A stretch of 44,605 bases of DNA from an uncultured archaeon (GCA_964458565.1 CAYWJO010000028.1:1-44605), one strand, 5' to 3'. Shown: positions 9,379-36,901, counted from the stretch's first letter. Notes: a model not told the origin generated them from the sequence alone. Made by a program: numbers and translations.

Positions 9379-10158
9379 ATGAAAAAACTCCTAGTCACAC
9401 TCACAGTTGCGGAAGGCAAGCGTTTGATTGCTAAAGGACTGCTAGCTACAGAGATAATCCAAGATGTTCTTCAAAATGGGTATCTCTGCATAACCCTCGG
9501 AACAACTTCATCATATCTTGTTGAGGAGATATTAGGCGAGTATGACAAGACACGCCACATCGCAGGTATTGTAATACCCAAGGGGATATGGATTACAAAA
9601 GGTGAATATAGAAACTTCGATGCAATTTTTCATAAAGGAAATTATATTGAGGGAAAAAAGGTCAAAGACGTCATAAACGAACTCGGACCAAATGATGTGA
9701 TTGTAAAGAGCGTGAATGCAATAGATGCAGTAGGGACGCCCCTTGTATTCCTCGCAAGTCCAATAGGAGGAACAGTTGGCTCATTCATTGGTGCTGCCGC
9801 TGCGAAGAATGTGACAATTGTTGCAATAGGTGGTTTGGAAAAGTGCATTCCAACATTATACGATGACTTTGCTGGAAGTTTTGGAATGCAAGAATGGGAC
9901 TATGCTATGGGATTGGCATCAGGCATGATAGCACTCACCGAAGCTGTACTCTTTACAGAAGTTGACGCATTTGAAATTCTCTTCGATGTTGAAGCGATAC
10001 CTATTGCCGCAGGAGGTGTGAATGGTGCAGAGGGGAGTTACACATTTTTCCTTGAGGGAGAGGATGGTGATATTGACAGTGCATACGAGTTTCTCAAAGA
10101 GCTCAAAGGAGAGCCGCCATTTCCAAACGTAGAGCATGTGAAAGAATGGGAGGATTAA
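9379..10158 (+). CDS. Conserved hypothetical protein, possible RpiA/NagB/CoA-transferase-like fold
   Basis: TLTVAEGKRLIAK, LGTT, GGTVG, GLEK and AAGGVNGAEG motifs; SD GAGG upstream. The fold call is a guess. Confidence 0.7.
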   Translation: MKKLLVTLTVAEGKRLIAKGLLATEIIQDVLQNGYLCITLGTTSSYLVEEILGEYDKTRHIAGIVIPKGIWITKGEYRNFDAIFHKGNYIEGKKVKDVINELGPNDVIVKSVNAIDAVGTPLVFLASPIGGTVGSFIGAAAAKNVTIVAIGGLEKCIPTLYDDFAGSFGMQEWDYAMGLASGMIALTEAVLFTEVDAFEILFDVEAIPIAAGGVNGAEGSYTFFLEGEDGDIDSAYEFLKELKGEPPFPNVEHVKEWED

Positions 10159-10164
10159 CTTCTA

Positions 10165-10932
10165 ATGGTCAGCGATACGGTAATTCAAACAGAGCACCTC
10201 ACAAAGATATTCGAGAAGGGAAAGAAAAGAGAAGTGATTGCTCTAAACGACGTCAGTCTTGAAATAGACCGTGGCGAGGTGTTTGGGTTACTTGGTCCAA
10301 ACGGAGCTGGAAAGACAACGTTGATACGCTTACTTGTAGGTCTCCTAACTCCAACATCAGGGAAAGCTTGGGTTCTTGGCAAAGATGTTGTAACTGATAT
10401 TGATGACATAAGACAACAGGTAGCTTTACTTCCTCAAGAGGCAGGCATCTATGAAAGGCTTACTGCTCGAGAGAACCTGATTTTTTATGGAGGTCTATAT
10501 GGAATCCCTGAGGAAATACTTGAGGAACGTGCAGATAAATTACTTGACATTGTTGATTTAAGGGAAAAGGAGAATTATCAGGTCAAAGGATTTAGCGGTG
10601 GAATGAAGAGAAAAGTGCTTGTTGCGAGAGCGCTCATTATCGAACCCGAGATAATTTTCATGGATGAGCCCACAACTGGTGTTGATACAATAGGAGCAAG
10701 AGTTGTCAGAACCCTTCTCAAGAAACTTAGTGGAGAAAAAAGACAGACAATCATTCTAACTACTCATGATCTTAACGAAGTATCAGAATTATGTGATAGG
10801 GTTGGAATCCTCAATGAAGGAAAATTAATTGCCGTTGGGAGACCGAGCGAACTTGAAGAAAAATACAAGGGTGCAAACCTCGAAGACATATTCGTAGGAC
10901 TCGTGACCGGAGAGGGCGTCTATGGGGGCTGA
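10165..10932 (+). CDS. ABC transporter ATP-binding protein (ABC-2/NatA-like exporter)
   Basis: Walker A GPNGAGKTT, signature FSGGMKRK, Walker B IFMDEPT, H-loop TTH. Confidence 0.96.
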   Translation: MVSDTVIQTEHLTKIFEKGKKREVIALNDVSLEIDRGEVFGLLGPNGAGKTTLIRLLVGLLTPTSGKAWVLGKDVVTDIDDIRQQVALLPQEAGIYERLTARENLIFYGGLYGIPEEILEERADKLLDIVDLREKENYQVKGFSGGMKRKVLVARALIIEPEIIFMDEPTTGVDTIGARVVRTLLKKLSGEKRQTIILTTHDLNEVSELCDRVGILNEGKLIAVGRPSELEEKYKGANLEDIFVGLVTGEGVYGG

Positions 10933-10935
10933 TCA

Positions 10936-12147
10936 TTGATGCAACGACGCGAGTCCAGATTCAAGAAAGATAGGTGGCTAATCAAAAAAGAAGTTAAGTC
11001 GCTCTTACGGTCTCGATGGTTAATCTTAGGATTTATCATCAGTCCAATGTTTGCATGGTTGTTTCAAGGAGCCTTCATCTCATTTGTTTATGACCAATCA
11101 ACTGGTTCTGGAGCAAGATCCAAGGTATATTTCACGCTTGAAGATAAGGGAGAAATAGGGGAATCTTTGTACAGAAACATCTCGTTAAACCAATTCAATC
11201 TCAACATCACACAAATGATCAATATTACGTGGGATGAGGGTCAAGCACTCATAGATAATAGGTCTCTTACTGTGTGGGTGATAATTCCGGACGGGTTTAC
11301 AGAAGCGTATACGAACTATACAGGGGACCACCCAATAGGAACGGTTCAGATGTATACTAACACAGGAGTGTTAAGAGCTAGGGCAGTAGCACTTAAGATT
11401 AAGAATTACATAAACGCATTAATTGATTATAGACCTTGGGTAAAGGAAGTACGCATTCAAGAGTACAGCATCTCTCCTGAAGCAACCTATGGACACCAAT
11501 TGGCAATCTTCCTTATCATGATCACATCTGTTCTTGCTCCAGCCCCGTATGTCAGCCAATCTTTTGCGGGGGAGCGTGAAAAACACACCCTTGAAGCATT
11601 GCTTGTAGTCCCTATGAGTAGAATCAGAATATTAGGTGCTAAATTGATTTCAGGATTATCGCTTACTACAATCTACATGTTCTTCACTGTAGTTGGGGTT
11701 TTGGTTTATAACTGGTCAATACTAGCGCGAGCTCCAAATCCAATTGAAGCAGCGATATTTACTGTCAATATTTCAACAATTCCACTTCTCATGCTTTGTC
11801 AGTTCCTAGTGTTATTATGCTCCATAGGAATTGGGGTAGTAATCTCATGTCTTGCTAAAGACCAAGCAACTGCTGAGTCGGTCAACAGTCTCATTCTATT
11901 AGTTCCAACCATGGTGATAGGTATACTCGGGTTCACAGGGAGCATTAACCAATTCCAAGGAGAACTCTTTGGATTCTTTGTTCAGGCAATACCATTCACA
12001 CATGCAGTCATAATCCTTGAGGGAATCTTGACAGGATCAGGAACCTTACTTGGTCTGTTGGGAAATATATCCTATTTGCTTGGATTCACTTTGGTATTCC
12101 TCATCATTGGAGCAAAACTCTTTGATCGAGAAGCAATAATTTCCTAG
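10936..12147 (+). CDS. ABC-2 type permease (NatB-like)
   Basis: LIKKEVK, AGEREKHTLEALLVVP...ILGAK; one plus five TM layout with a large external loop. Confidence 0.92.
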   Translation: MMQRRESRFKKDRWLIKKEVKSLLRSRWLILGFIISPMFAWLFQGAFISFVYDQSTGSGARSKVYFTLEDKGEIGESLYRNISLNQFNLNITQMINITWDEGQALIDNRSLTVWVIIPDGFTEAYTNYTGDHPIGTVQMYTNTGVLRARAVALKIKNYINALIDYRPWVKEVRIQEYSISPEATYGHQLAIFLIMITSVLAPAPYVSQSFAGEREKHTLEALLVVPMSRIRILGAKLISGLSLTTIYMFFTVVGVLVYNWSILARAPNPIEAAIFTVNISTIPLLMLCQFLVLLCSIGIGVVISCLAKDQATAESVNSLILLVPTMVIGILGFTGSINQFQGELFGFFVQAIPFTHAVIILEGILTGSGTLLGLLGNISYLLGFTLVFLIIGAKLFDREAIIS

Positions 12148-12270
12148 AAGAACATAATGATGTCCAGACCACATCACTGAAACTAAGAAGATGTTTACGC
12201 ATAAGACAACTAGTGAAGTCGGGAAAAGAGAACCCATTGATCATCTGGCCAGAGGGTGTATGCGTTAGAC

Positions 12271-12651
12271 TCATACACCTCCATTTTGTTGAGTTTCGGA
12301 TACATCGTTTGGAATTTTCAGTACCGCCGCAGACACAAGCTCCCGCATCCTTACAAGTTGACTTTGTACTTTTTCAATCCCTTCTTTTGTAATGGTAACA
12401 ATTGTCGTTGGTTTCAATTCAACAAAGTGCTTTGATATCTTGACTAGTTTCATATCCTGAAGTTTTCTGAGATGGCTTGAAAGATTTCCGGAGGTGAGAT
12501 TCAATTTGTTTTGTAGATGGGTGAACTGTGCTTTCTGTGTGAAATAGAGATACACTAAAATAGACAGACGCGCCGGGACGAAGGTTTCACGGTCTTCTTC
12601 CATGAAACCTACAAGTGCATTAAGCACATCCCCATCAAGTGACAAGCTCAT
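12271..12651 (-). CDS. Winged helix-turn-helix transcriptional regulator (HTH_34, ArsR/MarR-like)
   Basis: PARLSIL...FTHLQNKLNLTSGNLSSHLRKL...KPTT...ITKEG. Confidence 0.9.
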   Translation of the reverse strand: MSLSLDGDVLNALVGFMEEDRETFVPARLSILVYLYFTQKAQFTHLQNKLNLTSGNLSSHLRKLQDMKLVKISKHFVELKPTTIVTITKEGIEKVQSQLVRMRELVSAAVLKIPNDVSETQQNGGV

Positions 12652-13349
12652 TCACGTCCCATTGTCTGAACCAGGATGCGTTCTGCAGTCATTAGAATAT
12701 AGATTCCCTGAGCATAGAGCCCTCCAATATCGACAAGAATCATTACTGAAAAAGCAAGTTCGGGTAGAGCAAGGATTGGAATCAGACTTAGACTTACCAA
12801 CAGCACAAAAACGAGATGTGAAAGTGAGTAATCCACGGATTTTGGATTTTTTCTCATGTCAAGATAGATAGCGAGGTTACCAATAGCCAAGATAATCTGC
12901 ACAACAATGAGGAAGAGAAGCGGTTGTCCAGTTCCGAAGGAGTAAATGGAACTTATCACCATTATTATTGCAAATGCGCCCCATATCACATTCACTAGCC
13001 AACTTGACTGGTCTTCTTCTTGTTCAATACTTGTGTAAGATTTGGTTAATGGAACTATTAATCTGAAGGCGATGATGAACGATACTAATAAACTGATAAC
13101 CACGAAGAAAACGACGCTAATTAATTCAAGACCCAATGCTTGAAAGAAACCAAAAAGTGTTGTATAAACCAGAGTGATAATAGAAACCCCTCCGCCTATT
13201 AAAACGAAAATCAAACCAGTCACTCTACGTTCAACAACAGCGGGGTATCTATCAACAAGATCGGTTAGTTTGAGTAATTTCATTGCCGATTCTCGCATTT
13301 CCTCCTGACTTAGGTCGTTTTGGTTTTCGGATTTCGATTCGTCATTCAT
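12648..13349 (-). CDS. Hypothetical six-TM membrane protein
   Basis: About six hydrophobic segments; ATGA overlap with the wHTH gene; SD AGGTG upstream. Confidence 0.8.
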   Translation of the reverse strand: MNDESKSENQNDLSQEEMRESAMKLLKLTDLVDRYPAVVERRVTGLIFVLIGGGVSIITLVYTTLFGFFQALGLELISVVFFVVISLLVSFIIAFRLIVPLTKSYTSIEQEEDQSSWLVNVIWGAFAIIMVISSIYSFGTGQPLLFLIVVQIILAIGNLAIYLDMRKNPKSVDYSLSHLVFVLLVSLSLIPILALPELAFSVMILVDIGGLYAQGIYILMTAERILVQTMGRE

Positions 13350-13416
13350 ATTAACACCTACTTTTGTGACCTAGACTGCTTGGTTCTTGAATATTATGTT
13401 TCAGAGTAATAAATTA

Positions 13417-13436
13417 CGCGGGGGGAGAGACCCGCG
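13417..13436 (-). terminator. GC hairpin downstream of the ABC permease (possible terminator or transcript-stabilising stem)
   Basis: 6-bp stem CGCGGG/CCCGCG, followed on the minus strand by TAATTTATT. Confidence 0.4.
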
Positions 13437-13469
13437 CGTTCGGAGAGAATCAAGCAAGTCCAGAATGAG

Positions 13470-14633
13470 TCATTTCTTTGCAGATTGTCTCCCAAAGAGC
13501 AATGCTCCAATGGCTAGCATTGCAATCCCTATAACTGCCACTACAACAAGGTCTATCCACACCGACATCGTGCCTACAGGAGCCCCCCTAAGGAAAAGTG
13601 TCGTGAGTGCATGAGTGACATAGTTGCTAGGCATGAATGTGCCAAGTACCTCACTGAGTCCTCCTAAGGGCATGAATGTGCCAAAGAACATCTGTGGCAT
13701 AATGAAGATGAAACCAACTCCGGTTGCTATATCTGCGGTCTTTGATATTACTGCTGTGATTAGACCCATGCCGACGCAGGTAAGAGTGAATACTACCACT
13801 ATCAGAAATGCGAATAATAGTCCAGAAGCAGTCGTATTGGGTTGATAACCAATAGCAAAGGACCCTGCAAAGACCAAGGAAACCTGCAACACTCCCACAA
13901 TCATGTATGCAAGCGTTTTCGCAGCTATGAACTCAGAGGATGTAACTGGTGTGGTCCCCATCCTATTCAGAAGACCATTTTCACGTTCTACTGTGAGTGA
14001 TTGTGAAACGGTCATAATCATGAAGATGGCAGCAAAAGCGAAGATTCCGGGTGCCATGAAATCCCATTGAGTTAAATCACTCACATAGATGAGCGATGGA
14101 CTACCAATTTCGATTGGGAGCTCCATCGAACCCGCTTGCGCACCGTATATTGTTGTGAAGAGCACTTGTTGTACCATTGGGGGTACTGCGCTACTTGCAA
14201 TCATTGATCCACTATCAAGGTATAGTTCAACGGTCGTATTATCCCAAGTACTGCCATCAAGTGGAGAAACCCAGTATGACTCAATACTATCCCCAAATCC
14301 CTCAGGTATAATAACAAGAGCATGTAGACCGCCATTCAAGAGATCATCCTGTCCGGTTGTGTTAGAATCATAATGGTTGATAAGAGTACCATTGAGTTCT
14401 GTGAGATTACCAATAAAGGACTCAGACCATCCTGCATTATTTGAATTTGCGTCCATATTAACGATACCAATCCTGAATTCAGTTTCTCCCCCAGTATTTA
14501 TCCCACCGAATGCAATACCAAATATCAGACTGATTACTAAGGGAAAGAGTATCAACAAGAACAGCGCTGCAGGTTCACGATAGAATAATTTCAAGTCTTT
14601 CTTAACAAGAGCCGCAATTCTTCTGCTTTTCAT
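13470..14633 (-). CDS. ABC-2 type permease
   Basis: LVKKDLKLFYREP, DFMAPGI, ERENGLLNRMGTTPV; six TM segments. Confidence 0.93.
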   Translation of the reverse strand: MKSRRIAALVKKDLKLFYREPAALFLLILFPLVISLIFGIAFGGINTGGETEFRIGIVNMDANSNNAGWSESFIGNLTELNGTLINHYDSNTTGQDDLLNGGLHALVIIPEGFGDSIESYWVSPLDGSTWDNTTVELYLDSGSMIASSAVPPMVQQVLFTTIYGAQAGSMELPIEIGSPSLIYVSDLTQWDFMAPGIFAFAAIFMIMTVSQSLTVERENGLLNRMGTTPVTSSEFIAAKTLAYMIVGVLQVSLVFAGSFAIGYQPNTTASGLLFAFLIVVVFTLTCVGMGLITAVISKTADIATGVGFIFIMPQMFFGTFMPLGGLSEVLGTFMPSNYVTHALTTLFLRGAPVGTMSVWIDLVVVAVIGIAMLAIGALLFGRQSAKK

Positions 14634-14635
14634 TT

Positions 14636-15382
14636 TTAGACGACCTCCCTGAGTTTCTTTCCAGTTAGTTTTATGAAGACCTCTTCGAGGTTCTCCGCAT
14701 TATTTTCGTCCATGAGTTCCTGTGGAGTTCCTAAAGCAATCAGACGCCCCTCATCGATTATACCAACTCGGTCGCAGAGAAATTTGGCTTCTTCCATGTA
14801 ATGTGTAGTCAAGACAATCGCAATCCCATTCTTCTTCAGTTCTAATATGAAATCCCAAACTGCTCGTCGAGAAACTGGATCCATGGCTACAGTAGGTTCG
14901 TCAAGGAGGGCAACTTTTGGATTATGAATGAGAGCCATCAATGTGCTGATTCGACGAATCATTCCGCCGCTGTATTCCTTGGATTTCCTGTCTGCATGGT
15001 CATCCATTCCAATCTTCCGGAGAAGATCTGCAGTTCTTTCCTTGAGCTCTGTCTTTGGCACATCATGGAATGTACCATATATCTCGATATTTTCACGACC
15101 AGTGAGATGACCATAGAAAGCAGGTTCTTGGGGACAAACGCCAATTATCTCACGAACGTTTTTTCCATCATATTCCACATCGTAACCTCCGACCTGTGCG
15201 CCACCATTAGTTGGAGTTAGGAGCGTTGCTAGAATATTGATAAGCGTGGTCTTGCCAGCCCCATTAGGACCAAGAAGACCAAAGATCTCACCCCATTTGA
15301 TTTCAAGACTCACACCATCAACAGCAGTAACAGAACCAAATCGTTTGGTTACATTTTCAATAACTATCGCAGATTCAGACAT
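14636..15382 (-). CDS. ABC transporter ATP-binding protein (DrrA-like)
   Basis: GPNGAGKTT, YSGGMIRR, LLDEPT, TTHYMEEA. Confidence 0.96.
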   Translation of the reverse strand: MSESAIVIENVTKRFGSVTAVDGVSLEIKWGEIFGLLGPNGAGKTTLINILATLLTPTNGGAQVGGYDVEYDGKNVREIIGVCPQEPAFYGHLTGRENIEIYGTFHDVPKTELKERTADLLRKIGMDDHADRKSKEYSGGMIRRISTLMALIHNPKVALLDEPTVAMDPVSRRAVWDFILELKKNGIAIVLTTHYMEEAKFLCDRVGIIDEGRLIALGTPQELMDENNAENLEEVFIKLTGKKLREVV

Positions 15383-15676
15383 TGTTAATCACATGTATGT
15401 AGATGTATAAAGGGAATATAAGGGGTGAACAATGCGTGAAGCACAACCTAGTTTGTACGGCAAACTATTGTAAAATGAAACAGAGCCTAAAAATGAGTAT
15501 GGAAAAATGGTCAAAATTAAAGTTGAATTGAATATCAATACTGTAAAATTTTAGTTGTTTGAAATCACCTATTCAAAGTGCCTAAAGATGAGGATTTGGG
15601 CTATTTGAGCAACACCTGTTCTTTATATTATGACCACTACCGTAGTATATACATCGAGTGGAATGGAACGAAAAAA

Positions 15677-15760
15677 TGGACTCACAGAGTCCAACAGTGT
15701 GGGCTCACAAGCCCGCACTGTTCCCATATGTGGGTGGAGGGGACCAAAGTGTATCACTTT
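15677..15760 (+). ncRNA. Candidate structured RNA (four closely packed stem-loops), possibly a leader of the downstream regulator
   Basis: Hairpins at 15677-15693 (7 bp), 15693-15722 (13 bp with one U-G), 15723-15734 (4 bp) and 15746-15760 (6 bp). TATA-like TTTATATT at 15622-15629. Confidence 0.4.
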
Positions 15761-15864
15761 CTATCAATTACTAAGACATATAATGGTGATTATTCTGCTT
15801 ATTACTACCTGAAAGAACACAAGTCAATCTGCAGCACGTATATGATATACGGAAAGAGGTCAGA

Positions 15865-17481
15865 TTGAACACGGAGCGAGAGTGTGATTACGAAGAAGAA
15901 ATCAGTAGATGTTGGCTGGAAGTATCTGAAATTATCCATACCTTATTTGGTCTTGACGCAGCACAAATTCCGAGAGAGATTGAATCAGTAAGTTCGACTG
16001 AACTACTTGATGGCATTAGTCAAATCCAAAATGGGAAACTCTTGATTTCCGAAAAGGTCGCTTTGGGGGATATACCACTTCAAGCAGTAGTGGCAAGAGA
16101 ATGTTTGAAATCTGCACTCCCAAAGAAGGGTATATGCATTAAATGGGCGGAAGATCTTGCTAATGAGTTCGCGCGACAGTATCTAACAGGCAAGAACAGG
16201 GAAGATTGGTACAGAACATGGATAGAATCAACTCAAGAAACAAAAGTGAATGATGCATTGTCTCACTCACCCCAAAGAGCTTACGCATTGCTCTACGAAG
16301 CAATGGGTGAAAGAGCTCTGCAAAATATCGTATCGGATTTTATAAACGCATCAAAATATGGAACTGAAATGAGTTTGGAAGACTATCTTCAGTACTTTTA
16401 CACGGTAACGAGCCGGTTCACGGTTCCTCTAGATACGACAGAACTTCACATCATTGATTCATTAATTAAGGATCCCAATGCGACACCAAAGACACAAGCA
16501 AAAAAGCTCTCTCTCTCACCTCAATGGATATCGACAAAAATCACTGAACTTCAGAGAAAAATGATTCTTCGCAAATTCGAAACTGTTAGGTTTTCTAAAA
16601 TTGGAATTAGGATGTTTCATCTTGAGATTGGAAATGTTAGTATCTCTGAGATACTCAATCAGTATCTCTCAGGATGCCCATTTCTATATGGAATACGTAG
16701 TATTCTATCAGGACCAAATCAAGCACTGGCAATCCTAGCCGTTCCGGATAATCCAATCAATATTGCAGCCCTTGACAGATTCATAAAAGGATTGCAGGAT
16801 GATATGATCGAACACAGATTATTCGAAGTTACTTCATCAAGTGCAAATTATTGCTTTGATTACTATGATTCAGAAGACGGAATATGGAGAATACCTTGGG
16901 ATTTGGAGAGGGTGCAATTATCTAAAATTCATCAGGATGATCTTGCTTCGATATTTCCCAAAATCGATGAGAAAAAATGTATGGACAACTCTGAATTCGA
17001 TATGCTCGATATGCGAATACTAGGTACTGTTTGGAGGGGAGCAACATCGGTTTATTCTATTCGAAAAGAGCTGAGAGTAGGGCAAGAAAGAGTTGCAGCG
17101 AAATTAAAGGAATTTAGAAATCAGGACATTATAACGATGAAATGGGAAATCCATAACATTGGACTAATTGAGAACATTATGATACATACTGAAGATGCTA
17201 GTATAGGAGCATCTATTGCCGCTTGGTCACAGAGATTACCAAGGACGATTCATTCCTTCGATGATGAAAGACGAATGGTCCTGATGTGTTCCCTTCCCCA
17301 AGGAGGCACGTACGGAATGATTTGGGCAATGGAATTATTAGCAACACCAATCCAGACCAGTGTTCTCGGTCAATCACTTTATGGATATTGGAGATTTCCG
17401 GATGCACAATGGGATGTCAATACTTGTCAATGGAAGGCATCTTATGACGAAATCGAGAGTTGGTTGGGTTCAATACCATAG
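15865..17481 (+). CDS. Large regulator: degenerate IrrE/ImmA-like N-domain plus two wHTH-Lrp/AsnC-like repeats
   Basis: wHTH 1 (LDTTELHIIDSL...QAKKLSLSPQWISTKITEL) and wHTH 2 (FDMLDMRIL...IRKELRVGQERVAAKLKEF), each followed by a beta-alpha-beta domain. SD GAGGT before the TTG start. Confidence 0.75.
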   Translation: MNTERECDYEEEISRCWLEVSEIIHTLFGLDAAQIPREIESVSSTELLDGISQIQNGKLLISEKVALGDIPLQAVVARECLKSALPKKGICIKWAEDLANEFARQYLTGKNREDWYRTWIESTQETKVNDALSHSPQRAYALLYEAMGERALQNIVSDFINASKYGTEMSLEDYLQYFYTVTSRFTVPLDTTELHIIDSLIKDPNATPKTQAKKLSLSPQWISTKITELQRKMILRKFETVRFSKIGIRMFHLEIGNVSISEILNQYLSGCPFLYGIRSILSGPNQALAILAVPDNPINIAALDRFIKGLQDDMIEHRLFEVTSSSANYCFDYYDSEDGIWRIPWDLERVQLSKIHQDDLASIFPKIDEKKCMDNSEFDMLDMRILGTVWRGATSVYSIRKELRVGQERVAAKLKEFRNQDIITMKWEIHNIGLIENIMIHTEDASIGASIAAWSQRLPRTIHSFDDERRMVLMCSLPQGGTYGMIWAMELLATPIQTSVLGQSLYGYWRFPDAQWDVNTCQWKASYDEIESWLGSIP

Positions 17482-17521: not shown

Positions 17522-18919
17522 TCATTCAATAGGCCATTTAGGGTCAATTCTCAATCCAGCTCGATCAAGTAATTCTGCACTATGCTTGAGCGCCTTCATT
17601 CTAACATCACTTTCATCAAGAGTAAGTAGTTTCTTACCTTGCATCAGGACATGACCATTTACTATGGTAGTATCAACATATTGACCTGATCCAGAGTATA
17701 TAATATTGGAAACCGGATTCTCAGGAGGTGTGAGACCTAGACTAGTCAGATCTATAAGTATCAAATCAGCGAGTTTTCCAACCTCCAATGAACCCACTTT
17801 GTCCTGAATTCCCATTGCTATAGCTCCTCCTAATGTAGCCATCTCTAGGGCTTGTTCCGCTGTCACAACTAATGGGTTTTTGACAAATGCTTTGTGAATT
17901 AATGCAGCTAAGCGCATTTCTCTTATCATGTCATAGGTATTATTGCTCGGTCCGCCATCGGTTGCAATTGATACAGGAACCCCTTTCTGCAGCATCTGTG
18001 GAACTTTCGCGAATCCAGAGGCGAGCTTCATATTGCTCGCTGGACAGTGTGCGATATTAGACTTCGTTTTAGCAAGAATATCAAGTGCGTCATCTTCAAA
18101 ATGAATCCCATGAGCAAATATCATTTCAGGACCTAGAAGATTATTCTCTTGCGCGAACTCAGTCAATTTCATATTGTAGTTATTTTTAACATAGCGTACA
18201 TCATCTACCACTTCTCCAAGATGCATTGTCATGTGAGTCTTCTTTTCACGGGTCAATCGGGCAACTTCTTTGAATAGATTAGGAGTGACAGCACCAAGAG
18301 ACCTAAGACCATACCATACCTCTAGTCGGTTTTCACCGGCTCCATGCCACTTCTTGTACATCTCATCCGTTTCTTTCAGACAGGTATCAGCATCTTCAAC
18401 CATTCCATGATACATGATGTCATCATTATCAGCATAGCCTGTAGAGTCCATAATAATCTTAGAGAGTGCTGCTCTCATACCAACAGTCTTGACAGACTCA
18501 GCAATCTGGTTGAACCCATAACGAGTATGAATCATACACTCTACAAAAGATGTTGTTCCAGTACGGATCATCTCAGCCATGCATAGCTCAGCAGACACTT
18601 TACCATCAGTGCCCTCAAAATTGCCTTGTAAGACCCAAACATAATTCTTCAACCAATCAACCAGAGAGACATCATCTGCGCCACCCCTTATCAATGCCTG
18701 AGCGAGATGCACGTGAGTATTTATTAGACCAGGCATGACTACCATGTTTTTCGCATCAAGAACTATATCAGCGGTCTTGTATGACATCTGCTCTGTTTTA
18801 TTGACCTCAGCTATTTTAGTACCCTCGATAAATACAGCCCCGTCTTTGATGATACGCCGTTTGGGGTCCATTGTTATTACATAACCATTTTTGATAAGAA
18901 TAGATTCTGCTGAGCTCAT
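17522..18919 (-). CDS. Metal-dependent deaminase/amidohydrolase (MtaD/AtzA/8-oxoguanine-deaminase-like)
   Basis: PGLINTHVH, HLGE, HCPASN, ATDG, GSLEVGKLAD. Start moved to ATG at 18919 (GGAGG upstream); the track start is 18952. Confidence 0.9.
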   Translation of the reverse strand: MSSAESILIKNGYVITMDPKRRIIKDGAVFIEGTKIAEVNKTEQMSYKTADIVLDAKNMVVMPGLINTHVHLAQALIRGGADDVSLVDWLKNYVWVLQGNFEGTDGKVSAELCMAEMIRTGTTSFVECMIHTRYGFNQIAESVKTVGMRAALSKIIMDSTGYADNDDIMYHGMVEDADTCLKETDEMYKKWHGAGENRLEVWYGLRSLGAVTPNLFKEVARLTREKKTHMTMHLGEVVDDVRYVKNNYNMKLTEFAQENNLLGPEMIFAHGIHFEDDALDILAKTKSNIAHCPASNMKLASGFAKVPQMLQKGVPVSIATDGGPSNNTYDMIREMRLAALIHKAFVKNPLVVTAEQALEMATLGGAIAMGIQDKVGSLEVGKLADLILIDLTSLGLTPPENPVSNIIYSGSGQYVDTTIVNGHVLMQGKKLLTLDESDVRMKALKHSAELLDRAGLRIDPKWPIE

Positions 18920-23446: not shown

Positions 23447-24541
23447 ATGGTAAACGTCTCATTTGAGATGCACGGGATGAGATTCAGAAATCCTGTCTTC
23501 ACTGCTGCAGGACCCACTTCCAAAGATGGCATGATGCTATTAAATGCAGCAGCTGGTGGTGCAGGGGGCTTAGTAGCAAAAACAGTGAGTGTGAAACCTG
23601 CTGAGGTACCTAAACCAAATATGGCAGCTGTTCAGAGGGGGCGGGTTGAATCAAGGAGAGGAATTCTCAATGCAGAGCTCTGGAGCGAACTGCCTCTTGA
23701 AAGATGGCTAGAGAAAGAGTATCCAATCGCTCTTAGCGCAGGATTACCATTGATTGCAAGTCTTGGATATACACCAGGGGATGTCAGTGAAATCGCACCC
23801 AAATTACAGAAAGTAGGTGTCAACGCACTTGAATATAGCACACACTATGTTGGTGGCCATGTTGAGATAGCTAAGGCATTGAGAGAGTCTGTAGACATTC
23901 CTATCTTTGCAAAATTGAGCCCCAAAGTGGATGTCGCGAATGTAGCTAAATCATTAGAAGCTCATGTCGATGGTATTGTAGGAATCAATACTTACGGACC
24001 ATGTTTGAGAATAGACATTGAAACTGGAAAACCCATGCTTGGAAGTAAGGGTGGTGAAGGTTGGTTAAGTGGAGCATCTATCAAACCAATTGCTATACGA
24101 TGCATCGCAGACATAGCCAAAGAAGTCAAACTTCCAGTGATTGGAGTAGGCGGCGTCACAAGTGGTGCTGATGCAATTGAGTTCTTTATGGCAGGTGCGT
24201 GGGCAGTGGAAGTCTGCACTGCTGCAATTCTAGATGGACCCTCAGTCTATGGAAAAATTGCTACTGAGATTGAAGAATGGTTAGATCAACATGGTCATGA
24301 CTCAATTGAAGATATACGTGGTATCGCTCTGAAGCACATTCCCAAAGGGGTCCAATTATCCCCACCACCTAAATTAGACGACGAAAAGTGCACTAAATGT
24401 GGACTCTGTGTAAAATCATGTGTCTATGATGCAATCACACTTGATAAAAAAGCAGGAATATTGACAATAGACGAACAGAAATGTGAGGGATGTGGAATGT
24501 GTATTTCTGTTTGTCCCTATGTTGCATTATCCATCTCCTGA
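23447..24541 (+). CDS. preA: Dihydropyrimidine/dihydroorotate dehydrogenase-family FMN protein with C-terminal 2x[4Fe-4S] (PreA-like)
   Basis: NPVFTAAGP, KTVS, LNAEL, AKLSP, INT, GWLSG..IKP, IGVGGV, CTKCGLCVKSC and CEGCGMCISVCP. The active-site loop is atypical (EYSTHY). Confidence 0.78.
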   Translation: MVNVSFEMHGMRFRNPVFTAAGPTSKDGMMLLNAAAGGAGGLVAKTVSVKPAEVPKPNMAAVQRGRVESRRGILNAELWSELPLERWLEKEYPIALSAGLPLIASLGYTPGDVSEIAPKLQKVGVNALEYSTHYVGGHVEIAKALRESVDIPIFAKLSPKVDVANVAKSLEAHVDGIVGINTYGPCLRIDIETGKPMLGSKGGEGWLSGASIKPIAIRCIADIAKEVKLPVIGVGGVTSGADAIEFFMAGAWAVEVCTAAILDGPSVYGKIATEIEEWLDQHGHDSIEDIRGIALKHIPKGVQLSPPPKLDDEKCTKCGLCVKSCVYDAITLDKKAGILTIDEQKCEGCGMCISVCPYVALSIS

Positions 24542-35752: not shown

Positions 35753-36031
35753 ATGAACGCCATGCACAAGCTCACTAGGGCAGCAACCAGTCAGCAATAC
35801 ATGGAAAAAGGGTCGATGATCAGAGTACCCAAGTGGGCATATTTTATGGGTGGGATTCTTATTGTGATGAGCTGTCTACTTGGCGGGACCATTGTGTTTG
35901 TACTTCTGGAAATGCTTCCTCAAGGAATGGACATCCAAGTACCCCTGCTATTCATCATACTCCCCATGAGTATTCTCAGTCCACTAATAATGGTAACAAT
36001 GGCAATACTGCTAACAAGGAAGAGGGAGTAA
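35753..36031 (+). CDS. Small two-TM membrane protein
   Basis: Two hydrophobic helices and a basic C-terminus (RKRE). The real start may be 35801 or 35816. Confidence 0.55.
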   Translation: MNAMHKLTRAATSQQYMEKGSMIRVPKWAYFMGGILIVMSCLLGGTIVFVLLEMLPQGMDIQVPLLFIILPMSILSPLIMVTMAILLTRKRE

Positions 36032-36103
36032 ACACAATAAGGCAACGCAAAGAGGGAATCTTTCAGTATCGACATTGTGACAATCTTGTACCATCTCAAA
36101 ATA

Positions 36104-36901
36104 CTATAACGTTAAGGACATCTTGTACAATTTGTGGTGTAACTTATAGTTACGCTGCTCACAAAGACCAGCGAGGTCGTACATATCTGTAAATGTTACT
36201 CTCACATAATCAAATTCAGGAAGACAAAAGTTTTTCACACCTAGAATAAAATCATCAAAGCATTCAGTTTTAACAATTTCAAAGGGGAAACAGCCTGGAA
36301 AATCAGGGGTAAATCGACATACTCCCACAATATTTCTCCATTCATCTTTCAATGTGAGAACCTTGTATTCATCATAGGAAAGAAAGCGCTCAATCTGAGC
36401 TGCTGGGAGCGATTCGAATAGAGCTCCAACAGGATCTATTTCGGTTTGTTCTATTTCTTGGCATACGTATTTGTATTGAGGCTCAAGAGAATCGAATGGC
36501 ACAAAGAAATGCCAAGTTGTGCCTGTCATTTCAAATCCAAACTTTCGATATAGTCCTTGAGCTACGATGTTATCATGTTGCGTATAAAGATGAACATTAC
36601 TGATATCACCCTGATCCTGGAACCATTCAATTGCATACTTCATGAGTGACTTACTAAAACCTCTACCTTGTTGGTCAGAATCTACACCAATCCGACCTAA
36701 ATGACCCTCATCCTCTCCGAATCTGGATACAATGAGTTCACCAATAATAACGTCTTCGAGTTCTAGTACAAAACAACCATCTCGTTCGACTCGTTTCTTC
36801 ATCCATTCTTCACTCAACATGTCATCTGGGAATATGACCTTGTCCATGACATGAAATCCTTCCCAATCACTTGATGTCATTTTTCGAATAATTGGCTCCA
36901 T
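36104..36901 (-). CDS. GNAT family N-acetyltransferase with an extra C-terminal domain
   Basis: IGVDSDQQGRGFSK (motif A) and NIVAQGLYRKFGF (motif B). Confidence 0.9.
   Translation of the reverse strand: MEPIIRKMTSSDWEGFHVMDKVIFPDDMLSEEWMKKRVERDGCFVLELEDVIIGELIVSRFGEDEGHLGRIGVDSDQQGRGFSKSLMKYAIEWFQDQGDISNVHLYTQHDNIVAQGLYRKFGFEMTGTTWHFFVPFDSLEPQYKYVCQEIEQTEIDPVGALFESLPAAQIERFLSYDEYKVLTLKDEWRNIVGVCRFTPDFPGCFPFEIVKTECFDDFILGVKNFCLPEFDYVRVTFTDMYDLAGLCEQRNYKLHHKLYKMSLTL

Follow-up and report, generated by a model that had tools for sequence, protein, structure and literature searches.

Buried start codons that are unmasked by ribosomes are known from the coat-replicase coupling of MS2 and from the leader-peptide control of ermC, and archaeal repressors usually act over the TATA/BRE or the start. 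To our knowledge, the regulation of gene expression in Asgard archaea is almost unexplored, and no comparable unmasking device in these archaea was documented in the literature searched. Here we analysed a cluster of four stem-loops (hp1 to hp4) in a window of 44,605 nucleotides, the whole stretch of DNA under study, which, judging from the public names of homologous proteins, belongs to a Thorarchaeota (Asgard) MAG of 3.73 Mb (93 contigs, 93% complete) that is the sole representative of its genus among the genomes searched. As in the MS2 and ermC type of control, an upstream ORF (uORF) of the window crosses the strand that pairs with the start of the following gene, its stop overlaps that start (TTGA), and the weak TTG is almost fully paired. 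Unlike that type, the window is without a conserved leader peptide, the block formed by hp1 to hp3 is without a counterpart there, and the uORF is known here from sequence and folding.

U-tracts are described as an archaeal termination signal (PMC8716108). Archaeal and bacterial sRNA genes that end in a stem-loop and a U-tract are resembled by the minus strand of the window, which carries a TATA-like box, ~87 nt of stacked hairpins, a 7-bp GC-containing stem and U6, together with a C-rich loop able to pair with Shine-Dalgarno (SD) sequences. Unlike these genes, the window locus is without homologs and has a mismatch in hp2 on the minus strand, and stem-plus-U terminators are no general feature of this genome. 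The locus also resembles the tandem palindromic operators that winged-helix (wHTH) regulators of the MarR/Lrp/ArsR type have in divergent promoter regions, since a regulator gene and a transporter operon here flank two inverted repeats that have a common half-site and are two helical turns apart. It differs from them in that its arms greatly exceed the length required by a dimer, the spacing is uneven, and the best promoter candidate lies upstream of it; neither a regulon-wide motif nor conservation accompanies it.

The features of the locus are listed below, with their coordinates in the window and their strand.

15383-15864, no strand: divergent spacer of 482 nt between an ABC ATPase gene (14636-15382, minus) and the regulator gene
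15622-15629, plus: TATA-like box, TTTATATT; with its flank, CTTTATAT at 15621-15628
15671-15676, minus: run of six T (T6) directly 3' of hp1 on the minus strand; A6 on the plus strand
15677-15693, plus: hairpin 1 (hp1), TGGACTC-ACA-GAGTCCA; perfect 7-bp stem, ACA loop, apex with TGGACTCACA
15693-15722, plus: hairpin 2 (hp2), AACAGTGTGGGCT-CACA-AGCCCGCACTGTT; 13-bp stem with one U-G, CACA loop, apex with TGGGCTCACA
15723-15734, plus: hairpin 3 (hp3), CCCA-TATG-TGGG; 4-bp stem, TATG loop
15736-15742, plus: GGAGGGG, SD-like; on the minus strand CCCCUCC, an anti-SD-like loop
15746-15760, plus: hairpin 4 (hp4), AAAGTG-TAT-CACTTT; 6-bp stem, TAT loop, 5' arm including GTG 15749-15751
15749-15868, plus: candidate uORF of 39 codons, the final part of a 101-codon open frame; its TGA (15866-15868) overlaps the regulator TTG (15865-15867)
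15824-15868, plus: predicted start-occluding helix of 8 perfect bp, TCAATCTG (15824-15831) with CAGATTGA (15861-15868); a small hairpin (15837-15851) lies inside
15865-17481, plus: 538-aa regulator-like protein with a weak wHTH signal; TTG start behind AGAGGT

All four stem-loops reported in the initial annotation of this DNA were recovered at their positions, as was the repeated apex motif, TGGRCTCACA. Hairpins hp1 and hp2 have A15693 in common, and their large apices carry a 9/10 direct repeat, TGGACTCACA (15677) and TGGGCTCACA (15700), 23 nt apart. The sole non-Watson-Crick pair of hp2, T15700-G15715, would be U-G in a plus-strand RNA and C-A in a minus-strand one. The 3' arm of hp3 (TGTGGG) is complementary to both CTCACA apices via G-U pairs. 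In the modelled leader the mean P(unpaired) of hp1 was 0.21, while hp4, marginal when taken alone, showed a P(unpaired) of 0.46. An 8-bp inverted repeat flanking the cluster (15617/15812) was within chance.

Folding of the 96-nt core gave -39.2 kcal/mol (z = -4.4) for the plus strand and -38.3 kcal/mol (z = -4.2) for the minus strand, values that were equalled by none of 200 shuffles in either case. The 90-nt window at 15678 on the plus strand reached an MFE of -39.6 kcal/mol and was beaten by only 2 of 25,219 random windows of its own 3.73-Mb genome, both of which are Pro/Gly- and Gly-rich coding repeats with 73% GC. The single components were less distinctive. Stems of at least 13 bp with at most one G-U occur at ~14 loci of the genome, hp2 being the most GC-rich, and hp3 (4 bp) and hp4 (6 bp) are each within chance individually. 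The motif GGRCTCACA was found 51 times genome-wide with ~34 expected, which was not regarded as enrichment; nowhere else in the genome does it occur twice within 23 nt. The region 15703-15742 forms an island of 62% GC, whereas most of the spacer has 20-40%; at the other spacer end one 40-nt window (15423-15462) reaches 50%. The signal therefore consists of the abutting hp1 and hp2 with their common apex in a GC-rich island. The stem-loop cluster was confirmed as real, non-random and unusually stable for its own genome.

The 538-aa protein belongs to a large paralogous family, named Lrp/wHTH in public sources, with homologs in 56 of the 86 Thorarchaeota-family genomes searched (the count includes the window's own). 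Its closest relatives show 54% and 50% identity, and the protein is present in a second assembly too. In 12 of the ~28 loci inspected (L011, L012, L013, L018, L021-L025, L034, L037 and L040), the regulator is the second cistron: the 540-aa gene directly follows one of ~220 aa, whose stop codon abuts or overlaps its start. This partner combines a CARF-like N-terminal domain (HFX_2341_N / Csa3_N) with a MarR-type winged helix. The window's genome carries one full pair (C66:11542-13818) and one orphan partner (C6:42539-43171), while the window copy of the regulator is orphaned. The initial annotation had rightly placed a regulator downstream of the hairpins but had missed both the usual CARF-wHTH partner and the lineage-specific nature of the spacer that replaces it.

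On the other side of the spacer, the minus-strand ABC operon comprises the ATPase (14636-15382), an ABC-2 permease, a membrane protein and an HTH_34 winged-helix regulator of 126 aa (12271-12651). A GC-rich 7-bp hairpin, GCGCGGG...CCCGCGT (13416-13437, minus), was observed in the 120-nt gap between the permease and membrane-protein genes. Comparison with the syntenic locus of genome G045 (G045:C32, L068) showed that orthologs of the window genes 9379-12147 are kept upstream and an amidohydrolase downstream, and that the partner gene is located there exactly where the window carries the minus-strand ABC block and the spacer. The synteny break covers window positions 12148-15864, in which the inverted four-gene ABC block is present and whose borders are without repeats. 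A mobile element was rejected, as no repeats or transposon ends connect the two borders of the inserted block. The spacer was also considered as a degraded CARF-wHTH partner, and this was discarded: hmmsearch gave E >= 0.5 in all frames, and the best tblastn value among 12 queries was E = 0.029, with fragments that were not colinear. Judging from gene order, the spacer is a lineage-specific replacement at the site of the CARF-wHTH partner gene in relatives. As the partner gene is missing and the spacer is lineage-specific, the regulator gene would have had to acquire new expression signals.

The spacer half nearer the ABC operon contains two pairs of direct repeats, 15466-15476 / 15539-15549 (TAYTGTAAAAT) and 15482-15500 / 15577-15595 (AGWGCCTAAARATGAGKAT, 95-nt spacing), which may be protein-binding or promoter modules. 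Near the regulator gene, 21 nt at 15783-15803 (ATGGTGATTATTCTGCTTATT, which would encode MVIILLI) matched, at 95% identity, the part of a P-type ATPase gene of G021 (L009) that encodes its first transmembrane segment; we judged this match to be due to chance.

Searches for relatives of the cluster returned its own locus only. The cluster is single-copy in its 3.73-Mb genome, where the covariance model finds nothing but the source locus, and is therefore not a MITE or REP repeat; with one genomic copy and no terminal repeats, the repeat alternative raised in the initial annotation was excluded. No homolog was detected by DNA search of 40 relatives and the other 85 genomes of the family, no match by an exact 30-mer scan of a metagenome collection, and no related locus in the genome and metagenome contigs; a single-sequence covariance model of the four hairpins recovered the source locus alone from 86 genomes. 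Weak BLAST matches to hp2 in G094, G013 and G017 lie inside coding sequence and were dismissed as chance, and the 'hairpin' of the same-genome paralog on C66 sits within the coding sequence of the partner. The earlier statement that the hairpins match no known RNA family was borne out when Rfam 15 was searched. At a permissive threshold over 15000-16300, the best matches were SNORA61 with 21 bits (gathering score 74) and two C/D snoRNAs with ~20 bits; all of these had E > 0.2 and none covered the hairpins. A C/D or H/ACA box reading was rejected, given that the boxes are not suitably spaced and the Rfam scores are at noise level, and a tRNA/tmRNA scan of the region found nothing.

Among the ~28 homolog upstreams inspected, nothing resembled the hairpin block. 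Covarying homologs upstream of orthologs, whose absence the initial annotation had named as speaking against its proposal, were found neither in these ~28 upstreams nor, by DNA search and covariance model, in the 85 family genomes, and as far as these data reach the proposal is contradicted on this point. An RNA family cannot be defined from one unconserved locus of one MAG, and the 'novel ncRNA' of the initial annotation is not established as a new family by a cluster found once, in one genome. The cluster is best filed as a lineage-specific instance of an already known sort, a structured leader or control region.

Relatives of the regulator gene that lack the partner were found to carry same-strand elements in the 150-350 nt before the gene. 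At nine such loci (L029-L033, L035, L036, L038 and L039), a same-strand micro-ORF of ~22-26 codons with the core ..LPWFWRYFWR..H.Y lies at about -350 to -130 and ends 130-150 nt before the regulator start; its complementary TGG and CCA codons make up an overlapping hairpin. This hairpin is kept in L033 even though its 5' arm contains a stop codon there. These LPWF cassettes resemble the window in the downstream gene family, the strand, the similar distance (ending 130-150 nt before the start), and the presence of a hairpin that overlaps a small ORF and contains complementary TGG and CCN codons. They differ in that the peptide profile is unmatched in the window's spacer and genome and the hairpin sequences are unrelated: a profile of the nine peptides matched no window spacer frame at E <= 10-20 and gave nothing below E 0.2 in the whole genome. 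A minus-strand 49-aa ORF (15389-15538) with a weak tblastx resemblance to the LPWF peptide was rejected when the profile failed to match it.

A second kind of element was found in two syntenic orthologs of genus g7.

L064:1501-1840 (G006:C19:19024-19364) and L065 (G094:C4:126961-127297): g7 element, in which the two species are 89% identical

This GC-rich structured element of 340 nt (z = -4.4) ends in a long hairpin and U7 ~75 nt before the regulator. All 17 substitutions in predicted stems (17/17) are one-sided and keep the pair in the plus-strand RNA (GC/GU/AU switches). The element has no Rfam match and occurs in genus g7 only. Together with the LPWF micro-ORFs, it indicates that the stretch before partner-less copies has repeatedly been used on the gene's own strand. 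By their sequences, the devices before partner-less relatives are not homologous to the window's hairpin block. The wider value of the locus lies in the regulator family, whose three alternative upstream arrangements, namely a CARF-wHTH partner gene, an LPWF micro-ORF or a structured element, are suited to comparative and experimental study.

We tentatively favour the reading in which the regulator gene has a plus-strand leader RNA whose structured 5' portion is formed by the hairpins, this leader having arisen on loss of the translationally coupled CARF-wHTH gene. The TATA-like motif proposed earlier at 15622 is present, and CTTTATAT is the best spacer match to the YTTWAWA boxes that lie ~30 nt upstream of this genome's tRNA genes; the motif match would put a plus-strand start near 15650-15655, ~25 nt before hp1. 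SD-like motifs peak at -15 to -10 from start codons in this strongly SD-led genome, so that untranslated leaders (5' UTRs) are normal in it. GGAGGGG begins 13 nt before GTG 15749, which is the canonical distance. From 15652 to the gene the plus strand contains no T5 run. The partition function of a transcript spanning 15651-15900 showed that the regulator TTG pairs with 15825-15827 inside the occluding helix and has a P(unpaired) of 0.003, which places it at the 1.25th percentile among 400 SD-led genes sampled from this genome (median 0.42). The uORF frame is the only plus-strand frame that crosses the occluding arm. The sequence and folding features expected of a uORF-coupled leader are present: an SD and a start, a stop overlapping the main start, and the sequestering strand inside the uORF. 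Neither the uORF (39 aa) nor the 96-aa frame had a homolog in the 85 family genomes or in 400 genomes of the phylum (Asgard), or a Pfam match, and all-against-all short blastp of every spacer frame with the homolog upstreams returned noise only. The 32-codon ORF of the initial annotation is indeed opened by an ATG at 15676, but it has neither an SD nor a homolog.

According to the leader reading, transcription would start ~25 nt after the TATA-like box at 15622, and hp1, hp2 and hp3 would fold right after the 5' end into a compact stacked block, which we guess might stabilise the transcript or serve as a protein docking site. The short ORF would follow, with its SD GGAGGGG and its GTG start (15749) within hp4, and its ribosomes would traverse 15824-15831 and stop on TGA 15866 atop the regulator TTG. 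With the TTG locked in an 8-bp helix with 15824-15831, translation of the regulator would depend on the uORF ribosomes, and the protein would be made only when these open the helix and reinitiate. As modelled, the layout of the spacer is that of classical translational coupling by unmasking and mirrors the ancestral arrival of partner-gene ribosomes at the regulator start; the position of the regulator behind a CARF-wHTH gene in 12 of ~28 loci and the arrangement in G045 make such an ancestry of the coupling device plausible. Should the leader model hold, the locus would rank among the earliest concrete examples from an Asgard archaeon of translation that is coupled to a uORF and gated by structure, and it would show a gene rebuilding its expression signals after losing a coupled upstream gene.

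The leader was ranked first because it covers the most features. It accounts for the promoter box and for where the hairpins lie, for the SD with its uORF, for the stop-start overlap and the buried start codon, and for the evolutionary context. Of the 'cis-regulatory leader or sRNA' of the initial annotation, the plus-strand leader is the most coherent reading, whereas an sRNA on the minus strand is only a rival. Several observations count against the leader: in such a spacer an SD and start pair is expected about once per strand by chance (a rough estimate from background counts of SD motifs), the TATA box, being nearly symmetric, could also direct transcription to the left, the fold of the minus strand is almost equally stable (z = -4.2) and has a textbook hairpin with T6, and a 5' UTR of 213 nt is long when compared with the typical 10-40 nt implied by the SD peak. 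The leader model also does not explain the TGGRCTCACA common to hp1 and hp2. We consider it very improbable that the adjacent dead-protease/tandem-wHTH protein, which belongs to an Asgard-wide family of DNA-binding regulators, uses these twin GGRCUCACA hairpins as an RNA operator to autoregulate its own translation after loss of the CARF-wHTH partner; by pure inference, recognition of the hairpins by the wHTH protein is a candidate only. The U-G pair of hp2, put forward as an argument for the plus strand, is present as described but is weak evidence of strand, worth at most a factor of two, because a single-arm transition in a palindrome is as likely to produce G-T as A-C.

On the minus strand, the earlier strand call overlooked the T6 that directly follows hp1. 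A terminator test asking for a GC-containing stem with at least five U starting 0-2 nt behind it was positive for the minus strand alone, where a 7-bp stem with 4 GC pairs runs straight into TTTTTT; this is the only terminator-like site in 15300-15950 (shuffles 0.4) and the cleanest in 40 kb of the window. A minus-strand RNA of ~85-90 nt, acting as an independent sRNA or in cis as an antisense RNA, could begin ~25 nt beyond a TATA-like CATTATATG (15786-15778), run through hp4', hp3', hp2' and hp1' and end in U6, and in a variant its CCCCUCC hairpin loop could pair with the SDs of target mRNAs or with the plus-strand leader. We consider this RNA, variant included, unlikely. A compact succession of a promoter, four hairpins and a terminator is what an sRNA gene usually looks like. 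The minus-strand fold has z = -4.2 and a predicted CCCCUCC loop, and the U6 end agrees with archaeal U-tract termination (PMC8716108). On the other hand, hairpin-plus-T terminators are at chance level in the genome (15 found and 13.5 expected; 13 and 13.0), and a T6 next to one of eight hairpin ends has, as a rough estimate, a ~2% chance. The minus-strand TATA-like box matches the genome's tRNA promoter boxes more poorly than the plus-strand box, hp2 would carry a C-A mismatch, and no homolog was found in the family genomes by DNA search and covariance model. Moreover, hp1 with T6 is not at the 3' end of a minus-strand unit, as the flanking genes diverge and the nearest upstream minus-strand gene ends at 17522, 1.8 kb off. 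The common 10-nt motif, which is needless for RNA folding, would be expected if one protein bound two sites, and we regard as rather unlikely that the two palindromes are dsDNA operators, O1 (TGGAC-N7-GTCCA, centre 15685) and O2 (TGGGC-N6-GCCCG, centre 15707.5) with the common half-site TGGRC, bound cooperatively by a winged-helix dimer that controls one or both divergent promoters. The binder could be the adjacent 538-aa protein or the HTH_34 regulator (12271-12651) that closes the divergent ABC operon. Two wHTH regulators are thus encoded next door, and the spacer holding the palindromes separates a regulator gene from a divergently transcribed transporter operon. Half-sites are about one helical turn apart and sites about two; at a distance of 22.5 bp, O1 and O2 would occupy the same helix face. 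Against such operators, the half-site spacing is unequal by 1 bp (7 in O1 and 6 in O2), and the complementarity of hp2 continues 8 bp past the common motif, giving 13-bp arms around a 4-nt centre, which fits selection for an intrastrand stem over a dimer site. O1 and O2 lie at +25 to +70 from the best TATA box and not over the TATA/BRE or the start, the pattern GGRCT-N3-6-AGYCC is not enriched in the genome (52 matches and ~48 expected), and an operator-like motif is absent upstream of orthologs.

The cluster might also be a functionless by-product of the rearrangement, for example of a local palindromic duplication during repair, which persists only since the lineage is young; to us this appears unlikely as well. 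It would account for the lineage-specific spacer at the synteny break relative to G045 and for the lack of any relative of the cluster in all searches, and it agrees with hp3 and hp4 being within chance and with stems of at least 13 bp at ~14 genome loci. The combined stability in the top 0.01% of the genome speaks against it, as do the orderly translation signals and the buried start codon in the spacer, and the inserted block has neither repeats nor transposon ends connecting its two borders. The almost perfect arms, which also count against a by-product, imply either that there was little time to decay or that they are under selection.

Other structured stretches were also observed. At G000:C32, ~24240-24390 on the minus strand, a fold of ~-60 kcal/mol shows a tRNA-like acceptor and T-arm (..GGTTCAAGTCCCGGCAGACGCACCA) with a long insert, and is probably an intron-bearing tRNA missed by ARAGORN and by Rfam at the gathering threshold. 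An intergenic stretch at G000:C35 (~36290-36430, minus), with ~-52 kcal/mol over 150 nt and no Rfam match, is located just upstream of the minus-strand open frame 35967-36347.
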